From positions 21,515-85,514 of the forward strand of contig PGYQ01000002.1 in the NCBI GenBank assembly GCA_002839745.1: DNA of 64,000 nucleotides, in the 5' to 3' direction. The translations under genes were made by a program, and so were the position numbers. Position 1 is the stretch's first letter; each line of letters begins with the position of its first letter. The DNA is from Candidatus Kuenenbacteria bacterium HGW-Kuenenbacteria-1. GTDB lineage: Bacteria > Patescibacteriota > Patescibacteriia > UBA2591 > PGYQ01. Below, piece by piece: positions 2,423 through 61,846 of this stretch. The notes under the pieces were generated by a model that worked only from the letters and a program-made list of their open reading frames with translations, ran no database searches and was not told the origin of the DNA.

Positions 2423-2905
2423 ATGAGAATTTTTTGGAATGAAATCGGAACGCGATTTCCAGGCGGAACCGTCTGGCCCCAAGCATGCTCGGGATTTTTA
2501 GAATTTTACCGAGCATTAAATAATCCCTTGGAATTTGGGATTATTTCTTCAGGACACGATTTATTTATTGAAAAGTGTTTTGAAGTATGGGGTATTGAAA
2601 TTCCAAAAATTGTGGTCACTGACGACTTGATGCGAAGTCGTCGATGCGACAATTTTTCCCAGGCGGAAAGAGTAAAGCCTGGGGTTGGTCCATTTAAAAT
2701 TTTTTGCGAAGAATATAAAAAACTTTATGCAAAAAATTTAAATAAGGACCAAGTGCTGTATATTGGGGACAGCGCAAAAATGGATGATGATTTTGCAAGA
2801 AATTGTAAAATCTCATTTATTTTGTTCAACCCCAATGAATCAGATTTTAAGGGAAAATCAATTTCTGATTGGCGAGAATTAAAGGAGGTGATTTTAAAAA
2901 AATAA
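2423..2905 (+). pseudogene. HAD-superfamily hydrolase fragment: motifs II-IV present, motif I (DxD) absent. Region is GC-rich relative to the host.
   Basis: IISSG (motif II) and YIGDSAKMDDD (motif IV) are present. The frame stays open upstream to 2306 with no start codon and no DxDGT motif. Local GC is clearly higher than the surroundings. Confidence 0.4.
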
Positions 2906-9331: not shown

Positions 9332-12001
9332 ATGTTATACGACGAATTTAACTCATATAAAAACTTTGCCGGCGCTGATGTTTTCAAAAACAAAGCGACT
9401 GAAAAAACGGATATTTTGAAAAATCTCAATCCGGCTTTTCCAGCGCGCGAATATCAAAAAGAAGCGTTGGGGCGATTTTATTATTATTGCGAAGAATATC
9501 ATCAAAAACTCAAACCAATTCACTTGATGTTTAATATGGCGACCGGCTCGGGCAAGACGCTCATAATGGCCGCTAATCTTTTGTATTTTTATCAAAAAGG
9601 TTATCGCAATTTTATTTTCTTTACTCGTCTTGGCAATATTATTCAAAAAACTAAAGCCAATTTTCTTGATCCAAATTCAAAAAAATATCTGTTTGCCGAC
9701 AAAATTATGCTAGGCGGACAGGAAATAAAAATCAAAGAATATAATAATTTTGAAGGAGTAAATGATGACGATATAAACATTATTTTTTCTACAACCGCTC
9801 TTTTGCATTCTCGCTTTAATTTCGCTCGCGAAAATGTTTTAACTTATGAAGATTTTACAGATAAAAAAATTGTTTTGATTGCGGATGAAGCGCACAACCT
9901 ATCTGCGGAAACAAATAATAAAATAAGTAAAACCGAAGAAGAAGACCGTCGAAACTGGGAGAATACAGTAGTGCGGATTTTGAACGCCAACAGCCAAAAA
10001 GAAAATGTCCTTTTGGAATTTACAGCAACGGCTCGTTTAGAACAGGAATATCCGGAAATTTTAGAAAAATATAAAGATAAAGCGATTTATCGTTATGATC
10101 TGAAAGAATATCGCTTGGACGGATTTTCAAAAGATGTACGAACTTTGCAAATCAACGCGCCAACTATTGAACGCGCTCTCTCGGCAGTGATAATTTCTCA
10201 ATATCGCCGAAAAGTAGCAGAAAAGTATAAAATCGCTTTGAAACCAGTGGTAATGTTTAAAGCAAATAGAGTCAGTATTCCAAAAGAAGGAATATCAAAA
10301 GAACACAATCCACAGATTGTCGTTTCAAACATTTTTAAAGAATCTTTTCATAAACTTATTTCTAAACTCGGCGAAAAACACCTAACACAACAAACAGCAA
10401 TTAAAGATGCGACATTACAAAAAGCATTTCAATTTTTCAATGAGCAAAAAATTTCTTTGGCAGATTTAGTGGCAGAAATTAAAAGCGATTTTGCGCCGGA
10501 AAAATGTTTGACAGTTGATGAATATAAAGATTTAGAGCAAAAACAAATTTTACTTAATTCGTTGGAAGATCAAAACAATGAAATCCGCGCTATTTTCGCA
10601 ACAGAAAAATTGAATGAGGGCTGGGATGTTTTAAATCTTTTTGATATTGTCAGGCTCTATAATAGCCGTGACGTCAAAAACAATAAACCGGGTAAAACAA
10701 CTGTGCAAGAGGCGCAACTTATCGGGCGAGGTGCAAGATATTATCCATTCACACTCGGCGACTTTACAGACGCATACAGGCGAAAATTTGATACCGACAC
10801 ACAAAACGAACTTCGGATTTTGGAACAGCTTTATTATCACAGCGTAACGAATCCCCGTTATATTCAAGAATTGGAAAGTGTTCTGGTTCGTGAAGGTATT
10901 ATGCCGTCACGCACAGTGCAAAAAGAGATTAAGATCAAAAGTGATTTTAAAAACAGCGATTTTTGGAATAAAGGTTTTATTTTCTTAAATGCTCGCAAAG
11001 AAAATTTAGGCAAGAATGTTTTCGCACTCTCGGACGCTAAAGCAGAATTTGACCACAACGCTGAAATAAACATCTTTCAACTATCAACGCGAGAAGCGAT
11101 AGAAAAAGATTTATTTGTTGCGGGTGCTGGCGCCGGAGTAAATGCAAAAATAGAAATTCTGGATTATAAAATCGCTGATTTGGGAACACATATTGTCCGC
11201 ACCGCTTTGGCGAAAATACCAGCCGGACGATTTGATAAATTAAAAAAAATATTTGGCAATATAGAATCCATAAAAGATTTTATTTTAAATGAAAAATATC
11301 TTGGAGGAATAAAAATTAAAGTGAGAGGTAAGAGCGAGCAAGTAGAAGATCTTTTGCAGATTGAAAAATTAAGTATTGCCGGATTTGTGATAGATAAAGT
11401 GTTAGAAATCGCCGGCAAAGAAAAAAAGGAATACTACGGAACAAAGGAATTTAAAGCTCATTTGATCCAAAAAATATTTGAAAATGACAAGGTATTGCAA
11501 TTGGATAGCGAAAGTTCACGAGCGCAAAATATGCGAGATTTTGATTTTTCTTCTCGGGATTGGTTTGCTCAAAACGAAATCTGGGGAACAAGCGAGGAAG
11601 AATCATTTTTGCGTTTTATTGATGAGTCAATAACAAAGTTAAAGAAAAAATATCAAGACATTGCATTACTTCGCAATGAACAATTTTTCAAAATTTATAA
11701 TTTTGATAATGGAGAGCCATTTTATCCAGATTTCGTTTTGTTTTTAACTGAAAAGGAAACAAAACAAGAAATTATATATCAAATTTTTGTTGAGCCAAAA
11801 GGAGATCATCTTGTATTATATGACGAATGGAAACAGGAATTTTTACTTAAGATAGAAAAAAATTACACTATTGATTTAAAACTAGAAAATAAAAATTTTC
11901 GCTTGATCGGATTGCCATTTTTTAATGAGGGTCAAGTAAATAGTGCTTTGCGTGAAAAATTTGAAGAAGTTTTTAAAAAACAATTTTTAGATATAAGCTA
12001 A
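9332..12001 (+). CDS. res: Type III restriction enzyme Res subunit (SF2 helicase-nuclease)
   Basis: Helicase motif I (MATGSGKT), motif II (IADEAHNL), 889 aa, start 3 nt after the mod stop. Confidence 0.8.
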   Translation: MLYDEFNSYKNFAGADVFKNKATEKTDILKNLNPAFPAREYQKEALGRFYYYCEEYHQKLKPIHLMFNMATGSGKTLIMAANLLYFYQKGYRNFIFFTRLGNIIQKTKANFLDPNSKKYLFADKIMLGGQEIKIKEYNNFEGVNDDDINIIFSTTALLHSRFNFARENVLTYEDFTDKKIVLIADEAHNLSAETNNKISKTEEEDRRNWENTVVRILNANSQKENVLLEFTATARLEQEYPEILEKYKDKAIYRYDLKEYRLDGFSKDVRTLQINAPTIERALSAVIISQYRRKVAEKYKIALKPVVMFKANRVSIPKEGISKEHNPQIVVSNIFKESFHKLISKLGEKHLTQQTAIKDATLQKAFQFFNEQKISLADLVAEIKSDFAPEKCLTVDEYKDLEQKQILLNSLEDQNNEIRAIFATEKLNEGWDVLNLFDIVRLYNSRDVKNNKPGKTTVQEAQLIGRGARYYPFTLGDFTDAYRRKFDTDTQNELRILEQLYYHSVTNPRYIQELESVLVREGIMPSRTVQKEIKIKSDFKNSDFWNKGFIFLNARKENLGKNVFALSDAKAEFDHNAEINIFQLSTREAIEKDLFVAGAGAGVNAKIEILDYKIADLGTHIVRTALAKIPAGRFDKLKKIFGNIESIKDFILNEKYLGGIKIKVRGKSEQVEDLLQIEKLSIAGFVIDKVLEIAGKEKKEYYGTKEFKAHLIQKIFENDKVLQLDSESSRAQNMRDFDFSSRDWFAQNEIWGTSEEESFLRFIDESITKLKKKYQDIALLRNEQFFKIYNFDNGEPFYPDFVLFLTEKETKQEIIYQIFVEPKGDHLVLYDEWKQEFLLKIEKNYTIDLKLENKNFRLIGLPFFNEGQVNSALREKFEEVFKKQFLDIS

Positions 12002-12125: not shown

Positions 12126-15100
12126 ATGTATCAATTTTACAGTTTAGTTGATGATAAACAAGAAAATTGTTATTACATTGACACAAATTCATCTTTGAAT
12201 AAAAAAGAAATTAAAATTTTGACCAAAATTTTGGCTAATGGTTTTATTGAAAAAAATATTAGTTTAGTTTCAAAATTAAATGATGAAAAAGTAATTGAAA
12301 TTGGACCTAGACTTAATTTTGCTACTGCTTTTTCTAGTAATGCTGTATCAGTTTGTCATAATTGCGGATTAAAAATAATTATACGAATTGAAAAAGCAAA
12401 AAGATATGATTTAAATAAAAATGATGATAGAAATAATTTCATTAAAACAAATCATGATAAAATGACTGAAATTGTTTATGAAAAAAAGTTAGAAAATTTT
12501 AAAACAAATTTAATTCCAAAACCAGTCTATGAAGTAAAAATTTTAGAACAAGGAATTGATGCTTTGAAAAAAATAAATAAAGAAATGGGCTTGGGAATGG
12601 ATGATTGGGACGAACAATTTTATTTCAATCTTTTTATTAATGACATAAAAAGAAATCCTACCAATGTTGAATGTTTTCAATTAGGTCAAGCTAATAGTGA
12701 ACATTCTAGACATTGGTTTTTTAAAGGCAGAATGATAATAGATGGAAAAGAAAAAGAAGAAACTTTGTTAGAAATAGTTCAATCAACTTTAAAAGCTAAT
12801 ATTGCAAATAGTTTAATTGCTTTTACTGATAATTCAAGCGCTATAAAAGGTTATGCTATTGAAACAATTATTCCAAAAACACCTGGAAAAGTTTCGTATT
12901 TTATAAAAACAAAGAAAAAATATAATTTTATTTTTACAGCTGAAACACATAATTTTCCAACAGGAATTGCTCCTTTTTCTGGTGCTGAAACAGGATCAGG
13001 AGGACGAATTAGAGATGTTCAAGCAACAGGAAAAGGATCTTTAGTTGTGGCAGGAACTGCTGGTTATGCAATTGGTAATCTTAATATTCCTAAATATAAT
13101 TTAGTTAATGAAAATAAAAATTTTAAATATCCAGATAATTTAGCAAGTGCTTTAAAAATTCAAATAGATGCTTCAAATGGAGTTTCTGATTATGGAAATA
13201 AATTTGGTGAACCATTAATTCAAGGATTTAATCGTTCTTTTGGTCAAATACTTCCTGATAAAACACGACAAGAATGGATAAAACCAATATTATTTTCTGG
13301 CGGTGTTGGACAAATTGATAATATTCATATTAAAAAATATAAAGTAGAAATTAAAATGTGTATAATTCAAATCGGCGGTCCAGCTTATCGTATTGGAATG
13401 GGTGGTGGAGCAGCTTCAAGTATGATTCAAGGTGAAAATAAAACAGAATTAGATTTTAATGCTGTTCAACGTGGTGATGCTGAAATTGAACAAAAAATAA
13501 ATCGAGTTATTCGCGCTTGTGTAGAAATGGGAAATAATAATCCAATTATTAGTATTCATGATCAAGGAGCTGGAGGACCTTGTAATGTTTTAACAGAATT
13601 AGTAGAACCAATCGGTGGCAAAATAGAAATTAGAAAAATTAATTTAGGTGATAAAACAATGTCAGTTTTAGAAATTTGGGGATGTGAATATCAAGAAAGA
13701 CAAGCTTTATTAATTAAACCAAATAAATTAAAATTATTTTTAAATATTTGTAAAAGAGAACATAGTGATTGTGAAATATTAGGAACAATTACTGGCGATG
13801 GAAAAATTATTGTTTATGATAATGAAAATAAATCAACACCAGTTAATTTAGAACTTTCTAAAATTCTTGGCAAAATGCCTAAAAAAATATTTAAAGACAC
13901 AAGTTTAAAAATGAAATTAACTCCATTAATATTTCCAAATAATTTATCTTTTGAAAAAGCTTTAGAAAATGTTTTACATTTGCCATCAGTTTGTTCAAAA
14001 AGATTTTTAACAACAAAAGTAGATCGCAGTGTAACAGGTTTAATTGCTCGTCAACAATGTGTTGGTCCTTTGCAACTTCCATTATCTGATGTTGCAGTAA
14101 TCGCACAAAGTCATTTTAATAAAACTGGCGCAGCTATTTCAATTGGGGAACAACCAATAAAAATTTTAGTTAACCCAGAAGCAGGCGCGCGGATGTCAGT
14201 TGGCGAAGCATTAACAAATATTGTTTGGGCAAAAATAAGTAAATTAGAAAATATTAAATGTTCTGGAAATTGGATGTGGCCAGCAAAATTACCAGGTGAA
14301 GCTTCAAGAATTTATCAATCAGCTTCAGCAATGCGTGATTTAATGATTAAATTAGGAATTGCAATTGATGGAGGAAAAGATAGTTTATCAATGGCAACAA
14401 AAATGAAAAATGAAATTATTAAATCACCAGAAGAATTAGTTATTTCAGCATATTCTTCAATGCCAGATATTAATAAAGTAATTACGCCAGATATTAAATA
14501 TGCTGGAGAAAGTGAGCTTTGGATTATTGATTTAGGAAAATCAAAATGTCGTTTAGGAGGATCAGCTTTAGCTCAAACTGTTAAACAAATTGGAAATCAA
14601 TCGCCAGATGTTGATGATGCAGAAATATTAAAACAATCTTTTTTAGCAATACAAGAATTAATTGAAAAAGATTTAATTATTTCAGGACACGATCGTTCAG
14701 ACGGCGGTTTAATAACAACATTACTTGAAATGGCTTTTGCTGGAAATTGTGGTTTAAAAATTAAAACAGAAAATAATGCTGATAAATTTGCTTATTATTT
14801 TAATGAAGAATTAGGTTATATAATTGAAGTAAAAAATAATCTAAAAAAAGAATTTTTAAAAATTATAAATAAATATAACTTAAATAATTTAACAGAATCT
14901 ATTGCAAAAACTATTATTGAAAAAGAAATTATTATTAACCATAATAATGAATTAATTTTAAAAAATTCAATGCAAAAATTAAGAGATATTTGGGAAGAAA
15001 CAAGTCATCAAATTAATTTACTTCAAACTGATCCAAAATGCGCTCAAGAAGAAAAAAATAATATTTTTAATCAACAAGTATTAGAATATAAAATTTCTTT

Positions 15101-16758: not shown

Positions 16759-16772
16759 ACAAAAATAAAATT

Positions 16773-16807
16773 TCTAATTTCTAATTTCTAATTTCTAATT
16801 TCTAATT
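16773..16807. repeat. heptamer tandem repeat (TCTAATT)x5 between two tRNA elements
   Basis: Five perfect tandem copies. Confidence 0.9.
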
Positions 16808-25987: not shown

Positions 25988-26076
25988 AAAAAAAGAAATT
26001 TTGATTTATAAATTTTAAATTATAAATCAAAAGTAAAAAGTAAAAAGTAAAAAGTAAAAAGTAAAAATATTATAAA

Positions 26077-26646
26077 CTAATTTCCAAAAATTGTAAATTT
26101 ATTAAACGGCCAAGCCCTAATCCATGTTTTTCCTACAATAAATTTTCGTTCTAATGAGCCAAAACCTTCGGCGCTAGAATCAAAACTATGCCCTCGATTA
26201 TCGCCCATAACAAAATATTCATCTTTTCCTAAAGTAATATCAATACTTTTTTCAACCTTATATTTTTCAGGAAGAAATTTATTTTCATCAAAAATTTTTC
26301 CATTAGGATTTTCTTTATTATAAATAGTAATTTCTTTATTAATAATTTTTACTCTTTCTTCGGGTAAACCAATAACTCTTTTAATATAATAATCATTGAG
26401 ACTTTTTGGATATTTAAATACAATTACATCGCCTTTTTGCGGATTACCCAATCGGTAAATAATTTTATTCACAATTAAATATTCGTGATTGTGAAAATTT
26501 GGTTCCATTGAAGCGCCTTTAACATAAAATGGTTGAATCAAAAAATATCTAATAGGAATAACAATGGCTAAAGCAATCAAGGCCATTTGAATAAATTCTA
26601 TAAAAATAGATTTCCAATTTTTATTTTCTGAAATTTCTTTTTGCAT
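26077..26646 (-). CDS. lepB: signal peptidase I (S26)
   Basis: N-terminal TM, catalytic GASMEP box, KR box. Confidence 0.8.
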   Translation of the reverse strand: MQKEISENKNWKSIFIEFIQMALIALAIVIPIRYFLIQPFYVKGASMEPNFHNHEYLIVNKIIYRLGNPQKGDVIVFKYPKSLNDYYIKRVIGLPEERVKIINKEITIYNKENPNGKIFDENKFLPEKYKVEKSIDITLGKDEYFVMGDNRGHSFDSSAEGFGSLERKFIVGKTWIRAWPFNKFTIFGN

Positions 26647-26730
26647 AATTCAAAATTTATAATTCAAAATTTATAATTTCTTAATTAATTTAAAATTTAT
26701 AATTCAAAATTTATAATTTCTTAAGCCATT
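26647..26730. repeat. two direct copies of a roughly 38-bp AT-rich unit (AAAATTTATAATTCAAAATTTATAATTTCTTAA) upstream of lepB
   Basis: Direct repeat read from sequence. Its core AATTTATAATTTCTTAA recurs at about 56520-56550 and about 57060-57100. Confidence 0.7.
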
Positions 26731-32856: not shown

Positions 32857-34095
32857 ATGCAACAAAAAATTATTACAGGAATTGATATTGGCTCATCTAG
32901 TATCCGCATAGTTATTGGACAATTTGATATTAATGAACAAATTCAAATTATCTGCGCTATTGAAGGCCCAAATAATGGAATGAACCGAGGGGTAATCACT
33001 AACATTGAGGATGCTGTTTCTAGTATTTCTTCTGTTTTAGAAAAAACAGAAAGAATAACAGGAACGCCTATTGAACATGCTTTTGTAGGAATTTCTGGCA
33101 GTCATATAATCTCTCAGCCTAGTCATGGAGTCGTGGCAATTGCTAAAGCCAATGGAGAAGTTGAGGAAAATGATATAGAAAGAGTAATTAATGCTGCTCA
33201 AACAGTAATTACTCCACCGAATTATGAAATTTTACATATTATCCCTCAAACTTTTACCATTGATCGCCAAACTGGAATTAAAGATCCTATTGGAATGAGT
33301 GGTATAAGATTAGAAGTTGACGCGCAAATTATTGAAGGACTTAGTTCACCAATTAAAAATTTAACCAAATGCATAAATAGAACTGGCATTAATGTTAATG
33401 ATTTGGTTTTTTCTATTTTAGCTACCAGCGAAGCCGTATTAAATAAAAGACAAAAAGAATTGGGTGTGGCTGTAATAAATTTAGGCGGAGCAACCACTAG
33501 TTTTATTATTTTTGAAGAAGGAGATTTAATTACTTGTGGAGTTTTACCAATAGGTAGCGATCATATTACCTCTGATATTGCTATTGGATTAAGAATATCA
33601 ATTGATCTTGCGGAAAAAATTAAATTAACTTATGGCACTGCCTTGCCAGATCAATTTAAAAAAGAAGAAAAAATTAATTTAAACGAATTTGATGATAATG
33701 AAAAAGAAGCAGTTTCAAAAAAATATATTGCCAATATTATTGAAGCAAGAGTAGAAGAAATTTTTAGAATGATTAATGCAGAATTTAAAAAAATTAATAG
33801 AGATGGAAAATTACCAGCAGGAGTTATTTTAACTGGAGGTGGAGCAAAATTACCAGGAATAGTTGAATTAGCAAAAAAAGAATTTCGTTTACCAGCATCT
33901 ATAGATACTTCACAAGAAAATATTTTTACTTCTGTAGATAAAATTAATGATCCAGAATTTTCTACTGCCTTGGGTTTGGTTTTATGGGGAAGCCAAGCCC
34001 AACAAAAACATAATAAATTTTCTTTTTCAAATCTTTTAAATATTAAACAAATGGTTTCTAGCATTAAAAAATGGATTAAATCTTTTGGAAATTAA
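32857..34095 (+). CDS. ftsA: cell division protein FtsA
   Basis: Actin-like ATPase motifs (GIDIGSSSIR ... GGGA); 412 aa. Confidence 0.85.
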   Translation: MQQKIITGIDIGSSSIRIVIGQFDINEQIQIICAIEGPNNGMNRGVITNIEDAVSSISSVLEKTERITGTPIEHAFVGISGSHIISQPSHGVVAIAKANGEVEENDIERVINAAQTVITPPNYEILHIIPQTFTIDRQTGIKDPIGMSGIRLEVDAQIIEGLSSPIKNLTKCINRTGINVNDLVFSILATSEAVLNKRQKELGVAVINLGGATTSFIIFEEGDLITCGVLPIGSDHITSDIAIGLRISIDLAEKIKLTYGTALPDQFKKEEKINLNEFDDNEKEAVSKKYIANIIEARVEEIFRMINAEFKKINRDGKLPAGVILTGGGAKLPGIVELAKKEFRLPASIDTSQENIFTSVDKINDPEFSTALGLVLWGSQAQQKHNKFSFSNLLNIKQMVSSIKKWIKSFGN

Positions 34096-34271
34096 TATTA
34101 TGACAAAACAAAATAAACACGAAAACACGAAAACATAAGAAATTTTAAATTATAAATTTTGGAAGATTGTTTAAATGCAGAAATCGAACCTTGGGAAATC
34201 CCGTAGGCCGATTCTATGTAATCGCCCACAGGGCGAAAACGTGGTTTCGCCCCTACGAAACGCAAATTGTT

Positions 34272-35149
34272 ATGCAATACAATTCCGAAATCCATCATCG
34301 TCGATCAATTAGATTAAAAGAATATGATTATTCGCAAAATGGCGTATATTTCATCACAATTTGTACGCAAAATCATGAATGTTTGTTTGGAAAAATTGAA
34401 AATGAAAAAATGATTTTAAATGAATACGGCAAAATTGTAAAAAAAGATTGGTTGGAAATCCCAAATCATTTTCCAAATATAATATTAGACAAATTTATTG
34501 TAATGCCCAACCATATTCACGGAATAATAATTATTGACGCATCCGTAGGGGCGTACCCTTGCGGTCGCCCTGTAATTAGGGCAGGGGCAAGCCCCACGGT
34601 TGGGCTGTTCTAAAATAATGACATCATAAAGTTTACATTATTTGTACATTTTTCAATTGTTTCTTGTATTTTGTTTAAATTATTTTTTCTGAAAATATTA
34701 ATTACTAAATTTCTGATTAAAGAATAATTTGCAGAAGCATTTCCTCACGGTTAGGGAAATTAATTAAGCCCCCTTGATAAAGGGGGTTGGGGGATTTCAT
34801 AAGAAAGAAACCCTCTAAATCCCCCTTATCAGGGGACAAAGAGAGAAGCAAACCTCTTAAAAGCCCCCTTGATAAAGGGGGTTGGGGGATTTCAGAAATT
34901 AAGAAACCCTCTAAATCTCCCTTATCAGGGAGACTTTATGGAAGAAGGATTTTCAAAATTATAAATCATTAGTTGCAAATAGGTGTTTAAATATTTATAA
35001 ATCAAAAAATAAATATATGGGGAAATTATAGCAACGGAATTATTTTGAACATATTATTCGTGATGAAAAATCATTAAATAAAATTCACGAATATATTTTT
35101 AACAATTTTTTGAAATGGGAATTTGACAGAAATAATCCAAAAAATTTAT
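34272..35149 (+). pseudogene. REP-associated tyrosine transposase (RAYT, IS200/Y1 family) split by a MITE insertion. N part is about 34272-34592, C part about 35028-35149.
   Basis: N part has HHRRSIRLKEYDYSQNGVYFITICT and the HuH motif (HIHGII). C part reads QRNYFEHIIRDEKSLNKIHEYIFNN, the catalytic-Tyr motif. The two parts are separated by a repeat element that has a near-identical second copy at 58479-58781. Confidence 0.65.
34593..35027. mobile_element. MITE-like element copy A (one clean terminal inverted repeat (TIR), internal 86-bp tandem duplication, degenerate distal end) inserted in the RAYT gene
   Basis: TIR CCACGGTTGGGCTGTTCTA lies at 34593-34611. The body is near-identical to the reverse complement of 58479-58781. 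Internal GC hairpin modules are CCCCCTTGATAAAGGGGG and CCCCTTATCAGGGG. The hairpin unit is duplicated at about 34768-34853 and 34863-34945. Confidence 0.65.
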
Positions 35150-35154
35150 AATTA

Positions 35155-35290
35155 AATTCCGTAGGGGCGTACCATGAATTAGGTTTTAGGTTTTAGAGGT
35201 TAGGGATTTGTAGGGGCGTACCCTTGCGTACGCCCAAGAAATAAAAAACAAATAAAATTATGTAGGGGGCGTATTACAATACGCCCATAC
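35155..35290. repeat. cluster of GTAG-initiated GC-rich REP-like palindromes
   Basis: CCGTAGGGGCGTACC; GTAGGGGCGTAC-CCTTGC-GTACGCCC (perfect hairpin); GGGCGTATT-ACA-ATACGCCC. Related hairpins occur at 34183-34240, 34536-34552 and 36047-36066. Confidence 0.7.
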
Positions 35291-35302
35291 GAAATACAAT
35301 TT

Positions 35303-35617
35303 ATGACAAAACAAAAACTTCAAAAAAATTTAAAACAAATTATCAAAGATCTCGAACCATATAAATCAGAAAAAATAATTCTTTATGGTTCTTGTGCTAA
35401 AGGTGATTTTAAAAAAAATAGTGATATTGATTTATTTATTATCAAAAAAACAAAAAAAAATTTTTTCGACAGACTTGACGATGTAAATAAATTAATTAAT
35501 CATAAAACGCCAATAGATATTCTTGTTTTTACTCCTAAAGAAATAAAAAAACGCCTTGCTTTAGAAGATTTCTTTTTTAAAGAAATAATTCAAAAAGGAA
35601 AAATTATTTATGAATAA
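35303..35617 (+). CDS. minimal nucleotidyltransferase (MNT), antitoxin of an MNT/HEPN pair
   Basis: GSCAKGDFKKNSDIDLFII nucleotidyltransferase motif; 104 aa; overlaps the downstream HEPN gene by 8 nt. Confidence 0.75.
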   Translation: MTKQKLQKNLKQIIKDLEPYKSEKIILYGSCAKGDFKKNSDIDLFIIKKTKKNFFDRLDDVNKLINHKTPIDILVFTPKEIKKRLALEDFFFKEIIQKGKIIYE

Positions 35618-36005
35618 TAAAAATTTAATTAAGGCAAAAGAATGGTTTAAAATTGCTGATAATGATTTTGGGTTTGCTAAATCCAGCTTTGAAGATAAGG
35701 ATGAATATTATGCTCAAATATGTTTTTTGTTTCATCAAGCTATTGAGAAATATTTAAAAGGCTACTTAATTGCTAAAGGAAAAATTCCTCAAAAAACTCA
35801 TGATTTAGCTTTTTTAATAGAAGAATGTAAAAAAATTAATTTAAAATTTAAAGAATTTGAATTAGAATGTAAAGAAATAAATAAATATTATATACCAAGT
35901 CGTTACCCAGTTCATTGGATAGAAGTAAAAAAAGAAAACACCAAAAAAGCTTTTGAAGCAGCAGAAAATATTACAAAATTCATCAAAGAAAACATTTTAT
36001 ATTAA
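35610..36005 (+). CDS. HEPN-domain protein (toxin of the MNT/HEPN pair)
   Basis: 131 aa, predicted helical, translationally coupled to the MNT gene. Confidence 0.65.
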   Translation: MNNKNLIKAKEWFKIADNDFGFAKSSFEDKDEYYAQICFLFHQAIEKYLKGYLIAKGKIPQKTHDLAFLIEECKKINLKFKEFELECKEINKYYIPSRYPVHWIEVKKENTKKAFEAAENITKFIKENILY

Positions 36006-36070
36006 AACTTTTTATGACAAAACAAAATAAAAAAATAAAATTATGCAAAGGCGTATTGCAATACGCCCCT

Positions 36071-37630
36071 ATGGTAATAATTTTCTGCCAAATATTCGTA
36101 ATGGTTTTTTTATTTTCTTCTTTTTCTGTTTTATCTGTTAAAGCAGAAGGAGGTAATTGTCAATGTAATGGAAATATAACTACTACTATTTTTGCGAAAG
36201 GTACTATGGGATTATTTTTTACAACAGAACAAAAAACAAATTTTGAAAATTTATGTGAAAATTACAAAGGAAATTTCCAAAATTATGATTGTCTTGGAAT
36301 AATAAATGTTCCAATATCCACGATAAAGACTGAAAATAATTGTACTAAAGACTACATTCAAAAAAATGCTACGGAAGACATAAAAGCTAAATTAGGTCTT
36401 AGTGGTAAAGGTAGTACTGCTACTATTACATCATGTCAATGGACTGATAATGTTTCTTCATCGCCTTTACCAACATTTAAGACAACAAATCCAGAAAATG
36501 GTTGTTGTGTAAAAACCTTGTCTAATGGAAGTTTTCAATGTGAATTAGTTAATGCATTAAATTTGTGTCCAAACATTGAAAATCAATCTTTTGAAAAAGG
36601 AAAAATTTGTATAGGAGTTCCTGATTGTTTCAATATCTCAATGATGGAAAAAATAAATACTCAACCAGTAACACCAAGCCCACAATCAGAAGCTCGAATA
36701 GAACAAGAAAAAATTAGAAAAGAAACAATGATAAAAGCAGAAGCAAAAAAATTAGCTAAAATTCCTACTATTTGTTGGCAAAAAAGTGAGTGTATTTCAC
36801 CTAATGTTTTTAAAGAAAATTCATCACCATGCCAGTCTCCATATGGAAAATGTTATATGACTCCAAAAGGATCTACTTTACAAGTAGAAATTCCCGGTTA
36901 TGATGAAAAAGGGCAAACAAATATTTCACAATATATTTCTGCAATTTATAAATTTATTATTATTTTAGCGACGATATTGGCGGTAATAATGATTATGATT
37001 GCCGGAGTCAGATGGATGACTGCCATGGGTAATCAAGGTCAATTAGATTCCGCAAAAACAATGATTACAAATTCTTTAATCGGTTTAGTTTTAGCTCTTG
37101 GTTCTTGGTTTATCCTTAATTCAATCAACCCCGCTCTTGTAAAAAATGAAATGAAAGGAATTGCAATGATCCGAACGGAACCGTTGAAGATGCAACAAAG
37201 GGAAGTACCTGATTGGGGAGATATTACTTTTTGTAGAAGAGATTGTGGAAATTATGGAGGACCTCTCGCAACTATTTATTGTGCATGTGGTGAACCTTAT
37301 AAAAATTGTACCGGAGTAACAATAAGAGCAGAAGAATTAAGTGAAAAAATTTGTATTGCTAAGGACAAAAAAGTAATTGGTGTAAAAGAAGTTTCTCTGA
37401 TTAAGATAAGTAATCCTCAAAAATATACAGGGGAAAAAACAATAAAAGCAGTTTCTAAAGATTATAATTGTGGATGGGTGTATATGAAAAATAACGAACT
37501 TTTTTTAGGTAGAAACTGTCATAATGAAAATAAAGATTGCGTAATTTTTTGGGAAGAAGGATTTATAAAAGATGAAGTTCCAATTCGCGACAGCATTATT
37601 GGTAATTACAAGAAATCAGAATGTTATTAA
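36071..37630 (+). CDS. Cys-rich secreted protein with a C-proximal two-TM VirB2/TrbC-like pilin segment. Likely start at 36071, inside the listed ORF 36014-37630.
   Basis: Signal peptide (MVIIFCQIFVMVFLFSSFSVLSVKA). More than 30 Cys. Hydrophobic hairpin ILATILAVIMIMIAGVRWMTAMGNQG...NSLIGLVLALGSWFILNSINPAL. The REP hairpin GGCGTATTGCAATACGCC sits in the 5' part of the longer ORF. Confidence 0.4.
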   Translation: MVIIFCQIFVMVFLFSSFSVLSVKAEGGNCQCNGNITTTIFAKGTMGLFFTTEQKTNFENLCENYKGNFQNYDCLGIINVPISTIKTENNCTKDYIQKNATEDIKAKLGLSGKGSTATITSCQWTDNVSSSPLPTFKTTNPENGCCVKTLSNGSFQCELVNALNLCPNIENQSFEKGKICIGVPDCFNISMMEKINTQPVTPSPQSEARIEQEKIRKETMIKAEAKKLAKIPTICWQKSECISPNVFKENSSPCQSPYGKCYMTPKGSTLQVEIPGYDEKGQTNISQYISAIYKFIIILATILAVIMIMIAGVRWMTAMGNQGQLDSAKTMITNSLIGLVLALGSWFILNSINPALVKNEMKGIAMIRTEPLKMQQREVPDWGDITFCRRDCGNYGGPLATIYCACGEPYKNCTGVTIRAEELSEKICIAKDKKVIGVKEVSLIKISNPQKYTGEKTIKAVSKDYNCGWVYMKNNELFLGRNCHNENKDCVIFWEEGFIKDEVPIRDSIIGNYKKSECY

Positions 37631-43545: not shown

Positions 43546-43666
43546 ATAAATTGTAGAAGTTTTTAATGTTTTAAGGCTAAAAAAATTTTACAAATATATT
43601 TTCTTTTTATAAAATTATTCGAATAGTTGATATTAATTTTAAGTTATCAAAAAAAAGTTAGGGGGC

Positions 43667-43745
43667 GGTGCAGGTCGATGATTAGTCGACCTGCACCGTT
43701 AAAACAAGAGGGATTCGAACCTGCCAAGGTTTTCGCACAGACTTT
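43667..43745. other. perfect 12-bp-stem GC-rich hairpin followed by a degenerate tRNA T-arm-like fragment
   Basis: GGTGCAGGTCGA-tgattag-TCGACCTGCACC, then GAGGGATTCGAACCTGCC. Confidence 0.4.
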
Positions 43746-49556: not shown

Positions 49557-51373
<1,817 letters not shown>

Positions 51374-58308: not shown

Positions 58309-58478
58309 AATTTTATATTTAAAGATTATATTTATATAATAGCAAAATTTTTTATTTTTCCCAAAACAACTAACAATGTGCGTTCGAAAAAATTCGAACA
58401 GATTTCGCCCAAAATTTGTAAGGCGGGCGGAATTTTTACCTCATAGCAAACTTGCTTTGCTTCGGGGCACCTTAAACC

Positions 58479-58781
58479 CCACGGTTGGGCTGTTCTACAA
58501 AAAATAAAAATAATTTTGAAAATCCTTCTTTCATAAAGTCTCCCTGATAAGGGAGATTTAGAGGGTTTCTTAATTTCTGAAATCCCCCAACCCCCTTTAT
58601 CAAGGGGGCTAATTAATTTCCCTAACCATAAGGAAATGCTCCTGCAAATTATTCTTTAATTAGAAATTTGGTAATTAATATTTTTCTAAAAAATAATTTA
58701 AACAAAATACAAGAAACAATTGAAAAATATACAAATAATGTAAAATTTATGATGCCATTATTTTAGAACATCCCAACCGTA
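58479..58781. mobile_element. MITE-like element copy B (303 bp) with 18-19 bp terminal inverted repeats and a 9-bp target-site duplication
   Basis: Left TIR CCACGGTTGGGCTGTTCTA at 58479-58497. Right TIR TAGAACATCCCAACCGTA at 58764-58781. Flanking direct repeat CCTTAAACC at 58470-58478 and 58782-58790. No ORF inside. Confidence 0.75.
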
Positions 58782-58997
58782 CCTTAAACCCAAAAAGATA
58801 AAAAAAGCTAGACACACTTTTATGAACGGTCCCGTAAATTGGTCATGCCGAAAATCTTTTAGCCCCATCATTGCCGAACCTTCTATAACAAGATCAAGCA
58901 TTTTCATTTCCAATTTCGAAAATTTTTCGTTAGGTGCAAGAGTGTATTCAAAAAGAGCAATTTTACCACCGGGCTTCAAAATTCTAAAAAATTCCAA
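58758..58997 (-). pseudogene. C-terminal fragment of a SAM-dependent methyltransferase, truncated, with MITE B overlapping its 3' end
   Basis: ILKPGGKIALFEY motif typical of class I methyltransferases downstream of motif I. No N-terminal SAM-binding GxGxG region. Adjacent to tRNA-Ser. Confidence 0.45.
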
Positions 58998-61692: not shown

Positions 61693-61745
61693 AAAAAATA
61701 GTTTTTATCCGACAGCTGACGGATGTTAGCTTTTAGGAAAATCAT

Positions 61746-61786
61746 AAAACAAAAGTCGCGATTAATTATATCGCGACTTTTGTTTT
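61746..61786 (-). terminator. 17-bp-stem hairpin terminator downstream of the KH-protein gene
   Basis: AAAACAAAAGTCGCGAT-taattat-ATCGCGACTTTTGTTTT. Confidence 0.6.
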
Positions 61787-61846
61787 ATGTAAACCATGTT
61801 AAATGCAAATATTTAACAAAATAAACAATAGAATAATAAATGATTT

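Follow-up and report, generated by a model that had tools for sequence, protein, structure and literature searches.

The locus directly 3' of the dcw/ftsA cluster of Candidatus Kuenenbacteria bacterium HGW-Kuenenbacteria-1 is probably (we estimate roughly 0.75) a decayed REPtron, in which a single-copy RAYT gene of subclass 2.4, together with the GTAG-footed REPs and REP doublets cognate to it, lies beside a REP-bordered MNT–HEPN pair. The kind of element is already known, and the copy described here is a decayed member of it and is dead. The preliminary description had seen a REP/RAYT system at this place; what stands of it are true GTAG REPs and a REP-associated tyrosine transposase (RAYT), but the RAYT gene consists of two fragments, disrupted by a MITE, a stop codon and the loss of 110 nt, and there is no working system.

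Results

The locus and its setting

The window, i.e. the whole stretch of DNA that was analysed, comprises 64,000 nt of contig PGYQ01000002.1 (GCA_002839745.1; positions 21,515-85,514), and walking off both of its ends added only ~1.3 kb of sequence. The host belongs to the CPR/Patescibacteria and has an ultra-small genome with a G+C content of ~28%. The features of the locus, in window positions, are:

32857..34095, plus strand: ftsA (Pfam FtsA 2e-37, SHS2_FTSA 7e-30), last gene of the dcw cluster and conserved left anchor
34098..34113, plus strand: copy 1 of the 16-mer TTATGACAAAACAAAA, which opens only a 12-codon stub (MTKQNKHENTKT, then stop)
34203..34256, plus strand: REP doublet H1, 5' of the RAYT gene; GTAGGCCGATT..AATCGCCC-ACA-GGGCGAAA..TTTCGCCCCTAC, two hairpins between a 5' GTAG and a 3' CTAC
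34272..34595, plus strand: N-terminal fragment of the RAYT pseudogene, including the HuH motif PNHIHG (match to NCBIfam REP_Tyr_transpos, positions 6–65)
34545..34595, plus strand: REP doublet inside the RAYT CDS, in frame, encoding VGAYPCGRPVIRAGASP; the MITE interrupts its second hairpin
34596..34963, plus strand: MITE remnant in the RAYT gene, with left inverted repeat ACGGTTGGGCTGTTCTA; its right end is missing in the window assembly
34964..35151, plus strand: RAYT pseudogene, C-terminal part, KSLVAN...GKL, stop, QRNYFEHIIRDE...EYIFNNFLKWEFDRNNPKNL, stop (NCBIfam positions 106–133)
35123..35152, plus strand: candidate promoter by sigma-70 consensus match (TTGACA, 18 nt, TATAAT; 12/12 matches), in the last RAYT codons and directed towards MNT–HEPN
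35161..35173, plus strand: half REP H3, GTAGGGGCGTACC, 5' arm only, directly after the RAYT stop codon
35210..35235, plus strand: REP H4, GTAG + GGGCGTAC-CCTTGC-GTACGCCC
35262..35290, plus strand: REP H5, GTAGG + GGGCGTATT-ACA-ATACGCCC + ATAC, a degenerate double foot
35301..35316, plus strand: copy 2 of TTATGACAAAACAAAA, the true 5' end of the MNT gene (MTKQK...)
35303..35617, plus strand: MNT, minimal nucleotidyltransferase, putative antitoxin (PF01909 2.8e-12, PF18765 3.3e-12)
35610..36005, plus strand: HEPN-domain protein, putative toxin (PF05168 3.2e-28)
36012..36027, plus strand: copy 3 of TTATGACAAAACAAAA, where the pilin-like gene is annotated to start
36014..37630, plus strand: T4SS-pilin-like membrane protein gene (PF18895 2.4e-7), right anchor of the locus
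36046..36072, minus strand: REP H6, palindrome GGCGTATTGCAATACGCC, with a degenerate ATAG foot on the minus strand

The locus is a variable spot in one Kuenenbacteria lineage. The ftsA gene order is common to the loci L001–L007, and among 80 FtsA-anchored metagenome loci a RAYT gene followed ftsA only in the window species and in L007, a second Kuenenbacteria genome; a precise empty site was found in none of the 80. GTAR-footed hairpins 3' of ftsA were seen, in the 71 loci with downstream sequence, only in the window species, L007, L128 and L129, the last two being the closest FtsA relatives without a RAYT, in which a GTAAGG-type hairpin is retained after ftsA. On the right side, H6 sits within the first 20 annotated codons of the pilin-like gene and, therefore, the true start of this gene may be 36074. 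The pilin-like gene is not homologous to the gene 3' of MNT–HEPN in the related locus L208. A known RNA (intron, riboswitch) behind the insert or the hairpins was also considered; Rfam searches over the interval 30–40 kb at permissive E-values gave only chance matches to miRNA models.

The RAYT gene belongs by its motifs to subclass 2.4

In total, 6943 RAYT homologs were found, many of them named RayT by JGI. A profile built from 30 homologs matched E. coli TnpA_REP (PDB 4ER8) with an E-value of 1.4e-6, a match that was missed by a single-sequence PDB search. The two fragments scored 27.9 and 22.2 bits against NCBIfam NF047646 (cut-off 80) and had no Pfam match. The RAYT reconstructed without the MITE and with the stop replaced reached 61.7 bits, still below the 80-bit equivalog cut-off, and passed Pfam Y1_Tnp (24.1 with a cut-off of 23). 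Intact RAYT relatives likewise score under the 80-bit cut-off, among them the intact ortholog P0002 with 67.9 (29.5 for Pfam Y1_Tnp).

The motifs of the window RAYT, PNHIHG, QRNY preceded by a stop codon in place of W, and YIFNNF, fit the signature NH[IFV]H / WQ / YIxNNP of subclass 2.4 (PMC6006769). The second motif is WQ in P0002, and the tyrosine motif reads (E)YIFNNF where the consensus of the 30 homologs is YIxNNP. The hallmark of the subclass is a REP inserted in frame between HuH and Tyr (PMC6006769); here, the hairpin at 34545 encodes VGAYPCGRP, and V and P of VGAxxxxxP are nearly invariant among the 30 homologs. An in-frame REP was present within the gene of nearly all close RAYT homologs and also in L007 and L216. 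The RAYT-internal hairpin as a new trait was rejected, since it is already published for subclass 2.4 (PMC6006769). Judged by motifs and profile matches, the gene is probably a member of the TnpA_REP/RAYT family, subclass 2.4 (Bertels group 4). Group 4 RAYTs are reported to have low-copy flanking repeats, about 14 per replicon (PMC5581495).

The RAYT gene is a pseudogene

Both catalytic motifs, HuH (PNHIHG) and Tyr (EYIFNNF), are present, but not in one ORF, since they are split by the MITE and by a TAG at 35029–35031; in P0002, they lie within one intact ORF. The TAG stands where the WQ motif has its Trp (TGG-to-TAG); this residue, W140, is invariant in the 30 RAYT homologs. The TAG was present in all assemblies compared, and relative to L001, L004 and L006 the window assembly is 110 nt shorter; TAG and gap both come from metagenome assemblies. 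The open frame of the N-terminal part continues into the MITE up to a stop at 34611–34613, and the product of this fragment is identical to the 113-aa protein P0001.

The MITE (roughly 420 nt) was inserted in the loop of the RAYT-internal REP. Its remnant contains two copies of a ~96-nt unit at 34762–34940, and the full-length MITE of L001 measures 419 nt; its right inverted repeat matches the left one, and the duplicated sequence is AGGGGCAAGCCC. The window has a second copy at 58473–58779, which also shows inverted repeats and a duplication, here of 11 nt. Subtraction of the MITE and one target duplication from the L001 allele restored a 185-codon frame with a single TAG. An intron or an inversion within the RAYT gene was ruled out by the terminal inverted repeats, the target duplication and the second copy at 58.5 kb. 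In sum, the RAYT gene is a pseudogene of two fragments, disrupted by a MITE and carrying a stop at an invariant Trp. No other RAYT was found in the 64-kb window, and no close RAYT paralog from the host organism was among the top homolog matches listed.

Within the window, GTAG-footed hairpins are confined to the locus

At least six GTAG-type GC-rich palindromes had been proposed around the RAYT and MNT/HEPN genes and, indeed, six such sites were found, all within 34098–36072, namely five hairpins and one half-site. The motif GTAGGGGCG has four exact copies in the window, at 34248 (minus), 34545, 35161 and 35210 (all plus), and one-mismatch variants at 35282 and 36064 (both minus). With up to one mismatch, 8 matches were counted where 0.96 are expected in the window, a number reached by 0 of 100 shuffles; the remaining two matches (9466 and 18371) are isolated and without hairpin. 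GT[AG]G-footed palindromes occur within ~1 kb on both sides of the RAYT gene, H1 on the 5' side and H3, H4 and H5 (35161–35290) on the 3' side.

Each candidate was folded, as had been suggested; as single-stranded DNA, five of them folded: 34200–34260 (-15.8 kcal/mol, z -3.8), 34540–34600 (-15.6 kcal/mol, z -2.8), 35205–35240 (-8.6 kcal/mol, z -3.7), 35258–35295 (-8.9 kcal/mol, z -3.7) and, weakly, 36040–36078 (-6.6 kcal/mol, z -1.9). The stretch 35155–35205 did not fold (z +0.6) and is a half-site only. Three stem types and the half-site make the six sites a heterogeneous set. H4 is 92% identical to the RAYT-internal REP, H6 is a direct repeat of H5 including 13 nt of its left flank, and a 16-nt stretch at the half REP (35161..35173) is identical to 34542–34557.

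H1 aligns with REP doublets from other CPR loci. The stem type GTAGGGGCGTAC..GTACGCCC was found in at least 120 genome stretches from other phyla, the host organism not being among the matches listed, and GTAGGGGCGTAC-type REPs flank RAYTs of the same family in Bacteroidetes, Chloroflexi and other genomes (L023, L081, L095, L101). The CPR loci L007, L213 and L216 likewise show GTAGGGGCGTAC-type REPs, and a two-hairpin module is common to the CPR loci; this module, GTAGGGGCG...CGCCC...GCCCCTAC, recurs in CPR genomes, other phyla and viral contigs and would be a convenient probe for such loci. The hairpins are true REPs of the GTAG super-family. Outside 34203–36072, GTAG-motif and GC-rich-stem scans detected no REP within the 64-kb window, and in a scan for perfect GC-rich stems GGGCG...CGCCC hairpins were confined to the locus. 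By the test that the preliminary description had set, palindromes seen at this locus alone over the ~64 kb covered speak against a dispersing system.

The MNT–HEPN pair and the 16-nt unit

The reported MNT/HEPN pair was recovered (PF01909 and PF05168, values given above). The two genes overlap by 8 nt, and MNT scored 31 bits against the NCBIfam MntA_antitoxin equivalog, below its cut-off of 60. The 16-mer TTATGACAAAACAAAA has, as described earlier, exactly three copies, at 34098, 35301 and 36012, and none elsewhere in the 64 kb; copies 1 and 3 have 20 nt (..TAAA) in common. A few other 16-mers, AT-only or tandem, also reach three copies in the window, but only TTATGACAAAACAAAA has them at successive gene boundaries within 2 kb. 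The MNT start sequence is also found in L213 and in L208, which is without REPs. The unit does not belong to the REPs: it is the native 5' end of MNT, conserved in the REP-free L208, and two short duplicates of this end. The duplicates, at 34098 and 36012, may be cassette-junction stubs.

Related loci carry other cassettes

In L007, an intact RAYT ortholog (75% identical) follows ftsA directly and is in turn followed by a different toxin–antitoxin pair, an NTase/HepT pair of the MNT type. At the contig end of L007, after a DUF559 gene and a repeat block, there is a start-like sequence, TTATGTTAAAACAAAATAAAAAAA, which is similar to TTATGACAAAACAAAA. The contig L213 (2868 nt, ends overlapping by 141 nt) comes from the same genome and encodes three cassettes, an MNT–HEPN pair 90% identical to that of the window, Bro-N and HEPN–NTase, as well as a junction stub, TTTATGACAACTTTT. 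Upstream of every L213 cassette lie a REP doublet, an A-rich spacer and TTTATG. REP doublets thus precede all three of these cassettes and the pairs in the window and L007, with varying spacing and no integrase. A search of viral contigs for HEPN gave only two distant matches.

Discussion

Because the RAYT gene was inactivated by the MITE, by the TGG-to-TAG exchange and, in the window assembly, by the 110-nt deletion, the hairpins are best regarded as relics. That they do not belong to a working system also follows from the lack of a dispersed REP population in the window. By analogy with E. coli TnpA_REP, for which these steps are established, the HuH/Tyr enzyme would have bound the REP hairpin in single-stranded DNA, read its GTAG foot and cleaved and rejoined the DNA beside this foot. 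Such activity could have seeded REPs in the vicinity of the enzyme's gene and even within it. The TTATGACAAAACAAAA duplicates may be stubs that remained when small cassettes were gained, lost or exchanged at the junction, and any present role of the hairpins would be passive, e.g. as RNA or DNA structure between genes.

A more far-reaching interpretation starts from the doublets. The preliminary description had stated that the hairpins bracket a toxin–antitoxin module, and doublets do lie on both sides of MNT–HEPN in the window and again around the 90%-identical pair in the related genome (L213), but a functional use of the hairpins, or mobilisation of the pair by them, would be hypothetical. 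If, in some Kuenenbacteria, the GTAG...CTAC doublets were boundaries of small accessory cassettes (MNT–HEPN, HEPN–NTase, Bro-N), an intact RAYT of subclass 2.4 could excise, insert or swap these as single-stranded units, as a HuH analogue of an integron beside the cell-division cluster, and the TTATGACAAAACAAAA duplicates would be footprints of such events. The doublets would then resemble integron attC sites or IS200/IS605 ends in their role. The uniform arrangement of the three L213 cassettes and the stub TTTATGACAACTTTT would fit, as would the occurrence of the same MNT–HEPN pair in three different contexts and the different toxin–antitoxin families that fill the slot after the RAYT gene in the window and L007, both starting with TATGACAAAACAA. 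We nevertheless consider this unlikely: the arrangement was seen in only two genomes, the 141-nt overlap of L213 may reflect a cycle in the assembly graph, the spacing between REP and ATG ranges from 10 to 23 nt, and an integrase is lacking. Furthermore, REPs are common in intergenic spacers, so that flanking alone is no proof, and homology between the copies barely exceeds the two genes, as expected from coding selection alone. None of 205 other REP-bearing loci (120 genomic, 85 viral) has relatives of these toxin–antitoxin genes near its REPs, and transposition of REP-flanked cargo is not reported in the cited REP/RAYT literature. If true, it would bear on whether domesticated HuH transposases shuffle defence or toxin–antitoxin genes.

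An active REP/RAYT system, in which this RAYT or a paralog elsewhere now disperses GTAG hairpins through the small genome and is the source of those on both sides of the toxin–antitoxin module, is very unlikely. The REPs are locally enriched, and two other assemblies of the species break inside the locus (L002 ends in the ~96-nt MITE repeats, L003 71 nt after ftsA), as occurs where sequences recur elsewhere in a genome, but the L002 break sits in the MITE repeat and not in a REP. The sole RAYT of the window is disrupted in three ways, the other ~62 kb are free of REPs, and six sites of three stem types and a half-site are unlike a recently amplified family. Least probable of all is that the hairpins are ordinary regulatory structures (intrinsic terminators, RNA stabilisers) that are unrelated to a transposase and only resemble REPs: their intergenic positions, the GTAAGG-type hairpin in the RAYT-less L128 and L129 and a terminator-like match that covers H6 on the minus strand would agree with this, but no T-run follows H1, H4 or H5, terminator-like sites are not enriched (1 found, 1.2 expected), one hairpin lies within the RAYT CDS, the sequence family is common to REPs that flank RAYTs in distant phyla, and GTAR-footed hairpins after ftsA are absent from the more distant relatives among the 71 loci.

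The decayed REPtron also has a practical side for annotation: a pseudogene and repeats are the source of the 113-aa 'hypothetical protein' and of the ORFs which run through hairpins.

Comparison with known systems

Integron attC cassettes are an analogy only: they too are short, promoterless, often toxin–antitoxin cassettes between imperfect palindromes that fold as single-stranded DNA, whereas the window has no IntI integrase and no attI/attC core sites, its palindromes are REPs, and mobility of its cassettes would be hypothetical. The MNT–HEPN pair resembles type VII MntA/HepT-like pairs in that a small nucleotidyltransferase gene overlaps a HEPN gene by 8 nt. It differs in its HEPN protein, which is of the PF05168 type and not HepT/DUF86, and in the MntA score (31 bits vs 60); its activity is putative. 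IS200/IS605 elements share the Y1 HuH transposase, as the reconstructed RAYT passes Pfam Y1_Tnp, and hairpins near the gene ends, but the window element has neither multiple identical copies nor IS-type LE/RE ends, and the REP-associated family, rather than transpos_IS200, gives the best named match to its RAYT.

E. coli TnpA_REP (YafM) with its REP/BIME (4ER8; Messing et al. 2012, PMC3479197) is of the same HuH/Tyr family of single-stranded DNA enzymes by fold and uses a GTAG guide tetranucleotide at the hairpin foot. It differs in being an intact enzyme of subclass 2.2, with hundreds of REPs per genome and no REP within the gene. The GTAG-tagged REP super-family (Di Nocera et al. 2013, PMC3733652) comprises GC-rich palindromes of 20–40 nt in which a GTAG at one end stays unpaired; as in the window, they frequently form oppositely oriented pairs, adjoin RAYT genes in many cases and may also lie in ORFs. 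In that survey, its members were of high or moderate copy number in Proteobacteria, Cyanobacteria, Chloroflexi and the PVC group, whereas the window holds a local, heterogeneous cluster.

The closest relatives are the subclass 2.4 REPtrons (Quentin et al. 2018, PMC6006769), equal to RAYT group 4 (Bertels et al. 2017, PMC5581495). The preliminary description had noted that REP/RAYT systems are well described in Proteobacteria; this subclass is already described outside them, in Cyanobacteria, Bacteroidetes and other phyla (PMC6006769). Unlike these, the window gene is a pseudogene with YIFNNF (F for P), dispersed REPs are absent from the 64 kb, and the host phylum, CPR/Patescibacteria (Kuenenbacteria), is not named in the cited papers. 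Common to both are NH[IFV]H, WQ and the YIxNNP-type Tyr motif, long REPs whose 5' foot is GT[AG]G and whose stem base is made of G–C pairs, 'double-foot' REPs (GTAG...CTAC), in-frame REPs between HuH and Tyr, a low- or single-copy state and occurrence in scattered phyla. The locus would thus bring an ultra-small CPR genome into the range of the published TnpA_REP subclass 2.4 and its gene-internal REPs, with the family seen there in a decayed state.

A decayed REP/RAYT locus directly downstream of ftsA

In the AT-rich window (27.8% G+C) of Candidatus Kuenenbacteria bacterium HGW-Kuenenbacteria-1 (CPR/Patescibacteria), a decayed subclass 2.4 REPtron of the published kind, i.e. a REP-associated tyrosine transposase (RAYT) gene and its REPs, lies next to an MNT–HEPN pair that is bordered by REPs. 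A 113-aa ORF of the window matches a protein of this organism with full identity. The locus is found directly 3' of ftsA, which closes a dcw-type cluster with the order mraZ, rsmH, PBP gene, ybeY, DAGK gene and ftsA, and comprises:

32857–34095, ftsA
34098, 35301 and 36012, copies 1, 2 and 3 of a 16-mer, TTATGACAAAACAAAA
34203–34256, REP doublet H1 (two hairpins)
34272–34595, N-terminal RAYT part (positions 6–65 of the NCBIfam REP-associated tyrosine transposase)
34545–34595, two-hairpin REP module within it, encoding VGAYPCGRPVIRAGASP
34596–34963, remnant of a MITE
35032–35151, separate RAYT piece (positions 106–133 of the same NCBIfam model)
35161–35173, half REP
35174–35206, run of a 7-nt unit (TTAGGTT TTAGGTT TTAGAGG TTAGGGA), between the half REP and H4
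35210–35235, hairpin H4
35262–35290, hairpin H5
35303–35617, MNT (Pfam)
35610–36005, HEPN (Pfam)
36046–36072, hairpin H6

The RAYT of the preliminary description is not intact: it was found as fragments only, both scoring far under the NCBIfam cut-off, and it has one of the hairpins in its interior. Over shared stretches, L001, L004 and L006, three further assemblies of the species, are identical to the window except for 110 extra nt, which restore more of the gene. This piece (L001 12108–12217; gap at window 34963/34964) contains the right end of the MITE plus ~60 nt that code for RAYT, its breakpoints share the microhomology TATA, and its absence in the window reflects either a genuine deletion allele or a difference between assemblies. 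In the longer allele (L001), excision of the MITE and one duplication gave 185 codons in frame with a single internal TAG, located at a Trp that is invariant in 30/30 homologs. With the MITE, the TAG and the missing 110 nt, the RAYT of this strain is therefore dead three times over. Contigs of other same-species assemblies terminate within the 2-kb locus (L002 at window 34913, L003 at 34166, L001/L006 at 35889), the two independent contigs of L001/L006 breaking at the identical base inside HEPN, which suggests repeats or strain heterogeneity.

A 12/12 match to the sigma-70 consensus (TTGACA, 18 nt, TATAAT) is present at 35123–35152 (+), within the final codons of the broken RAYT gene; it is directed toward MNT–HEPN, its -10 element includes the RAYT stop codon, and TATAAT is kept at the same place in a second Kuenenbacteria genome (L007, GCA_043822485.1). 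The AT-only motif AAATTTTAAATTATAAA occurs four times in the window (405, 26010, 34140 and 37711), once just 5' of the RAYT locus, and is possibly a signal of promoter-like or intergenic type.

The element that splits the RAYT gene is a MITE

In the longer allele a 419-nt element (L001 11740–12158) sits within the RAYT gene, with the terminal inverted repeats ACGGTTGGGCTG...CAGCCCAACCGT and the flanking duplication AGGGGCAAGCCC. It is a MITE, since a second copy at window 58473–58779 has 17-nt inverted repeats (ACGGTTGGGCTGTTCTA) and an 11-nt duplication, ACCTTAAACCC. Lengths range from about 307 to 419 nt and target duplications from 11 to 12 nt. The second copy appears to split a SAM-methyltransferase-like ORF, with the C-terminal part at 58758–58997(-), and the opposite strand of the MITE interior holds, as judged by eye, an apparent transposase-gene tail. 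Repeated within the MITE is a ~96-nt unit with two small hairpins, CCCCCTTGATAAAGGGGG(TTGGGGGATTT) and AAACCCTCTAAATCYCCCTTRTCAGGGR, found at:

34762–34940 and 58541–58608, window
2556–2647, 11621–11790 and 12186–12420, L007

Many L007 copies surround a DUF559 gene, and the repeats lie there directly 3' of a second RAYT 5' stub (MEYNPKTHHRQSI*).

The hairpins are REPs of a widespread type

Exact matches to GTAGGGGCG were found at 34248(-), 34545, 35161 and 35210, and one-mismatch variants in the locus at 35282(-) and 36064(-). Allowing up to one mismatch, the whole window has 8 matches versus 0.96 expected, a number reached in 0 shuffles. GGGCG...CGCCC hairpins were confined to 34231–35286 in a scan for perfect GC-rich stems, and five sites fold as ssDNA better than shuffles (z -1.9 to -3.8). 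These results bear out the GC-rich GTAG palindromes described at the RAYT and the MNT–HEPN pair; 35161, just the 5' half of a site, did not fold. Neither REPs nor a second RAYT, MNT or HEPN were found in the ~62 kb of window outside the locus. A low REP count is typical of group 4, since its flanking 16-mers are reported in only about 14 copies per replicon (PMC5581495). As the RAYT gene is broken, the REPs of the locus are relics. The window has three further long perfect palindromes (43666–43698, 61743–61789 and 2903–2939; stems of 13, 20 and 16 bp), whose sequences are not related to those of the GTAG hairpins.

Di Nocera et al. 2013 (PMC3733652) reported GTAG-tagged REPs that pair in opposite orientation and are associated with RAYTs ("REPtrons"). 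The pattern GTAGGGGCGTAC(N4–8)GTACGCCC, scanned over one genome per species, gave at least 120 stretches versus about five by chance (our own estimate for a 20-base pattern). The matches listed include Nostoc, Bacteroidales, Chloroflexi, Nitrospirae and others; most of them are far from any RAYT, and in four loci (L023, L081, L095 and L101) the sites flank RAYTs of the same family. A two-hairpin module, GTAGGGGCGACCnTTGCGGTCGCCC-n-GGGCGCGGGCAAGCCGCGCCCCTAC, is common to CPR loci, where it lies inside RAYTs (the window and the CPR locus L216), beside RAYTs and 5' of toxin–antitoxin genes; its pattern also occurs in 85 viral contigs. The window hairpins are thus true REPs of a widespread type.

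REPs border the toxin–antitoxin pair

Both genes of the proposed MNT–HEPN pair were identified by Pfam, and the count of exactly three copies for TTATGACAAAACAAAA agrees with the preliminary description. Some AT-only or tandem 16-mers also have three copies; those of TTATGACAAAACAAAA sit at three successive gene boundaries inside 2 kb. The same census returned AT-rich short tandem repeats at 16769–16795, 26029–26055, 26645–26710 and 50138–50160 (units AATTTCT, AAAAGTA, ~14–40 nt and AATTTTA).

The pair recurs in two other contexts with 85–90% identity. In L208–L212 it lies within a type IV secretion-like cluster without REPs, with the same start, TTTATGACAAAACAAAAACTTC. The other is L213 (JBDRBO010000065.1), a contig of 2868 nt from the L007 genome; its ends overlap by 141 nt, so that positions 1–2868 represent a circular molecule, a tandem array or a cycle in the assembly graph. 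In front of each of its three cassettes (MNT–HEPN, Bro-N and HEPN–NTase), L213 has a REP doublet with an A-rich spacer and TTTATG, and 3' of the first cassette it has a truncated junction, TTTATGACAACTTTT. Since REP-free L208–L212 and L213 share this start, the 16-mer is the native 5' end of MNT; copies 1 and 3 have 20 nt in common and are most plausibly short junction stubs that arose by duplication. H6 lies inside the first 20 annotated codons (36014–36073; MTKQNKKIKLCKGVLQYAP) of a T4SS-pilin-like gene, which may in fact begin at the ATG at 36074, opening the signal-peptide-like MVIIFCQIFVMVFLF.

REPs are habitually located in intergenic spacers. The pair is genuinely flanked by REPs, and is so again in L213; the further claim that REPs are used to bracket it, and with it REP-driven mobilisation, found no support. 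Homology among copies extends little beyond the two genes, REP-to-ATG distances vary, and 0/205 other REP-bearing loci had relatives of these genes near REPs. A role of REP doublets as boundaries of mobile accessory cassettes in these Kuenenbacteria is improbable.

Relatives of the locus after ftsA

L007 has an intact RAYT, 75% identical, directly 3' of ftsA, with identical 28-nt double-foot REPs (GTAGGGGCAATTCATGAATTGCCCCTAC) both upstream and downstream; relative to GTAGGGGCAATTCATGAATTGCCCCTAC, its intragenic copy has one C>T/G>A pair of changes, which is compensatory. The genes that come next in L007 form another kind of pair, encoding a Polbeta NTase and a HepT-like protein. FtsA relatives (38–86% identity) served as anchors for 80 metagenome loci, of which 0/80 had a RAYT after ftsA; the closest two keep only GTAAGG-footed hairpins (e.g. 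GTAAGGACGAATAATTATTCGCCCTTAC, CGTAAGGGCGAAAAATCTTTCGCC), possibly what is left of a former REPtron:

1770–1800, L128
7594–7720, L129

The element is thus limited to a narrow lineage, with gain or loss at the ftsA spot.

Comparison with TnpA_REP subclass 2.4

A search at E ≤ 0.001 gave 6943 RAYT homologs, many labelled "REP element-mobilizing transposase RayT" by JGI, and a profile of 30 homologs matched E. coli TnpA_REP (4ER8) with 1.4e-6. The repaired protein, with the motifs PNHIHG, [W]QRNY and EYIFNNF, is over the Pfam Y1_Tnp threshold and under the NCBIfam 80-bit equivalog cut-off, as are intact relatives. In an alignment of 30 homologs, the variable linker opens almost always with VGA and has a conserved Pro, a pattern that is the translation of GTAGGGGC...CCC. 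A literature search found no paper describing a subclass 2.4 REPtron in CPR/Patescibacteria. Subclass 2.4, which is Bertels group 4, is characterised by NH[IFV]H, WQ and YIxNNP motifs, by long GT[AG]G-footed REPs as well as "double-foot" REPs and, as a "remarkable and unique feature", in-frame REP insertions between HuH and Tyr (Quentin et al. 2018, PMC6006769). The window shows exactly these published features, including the REP inside the gene.
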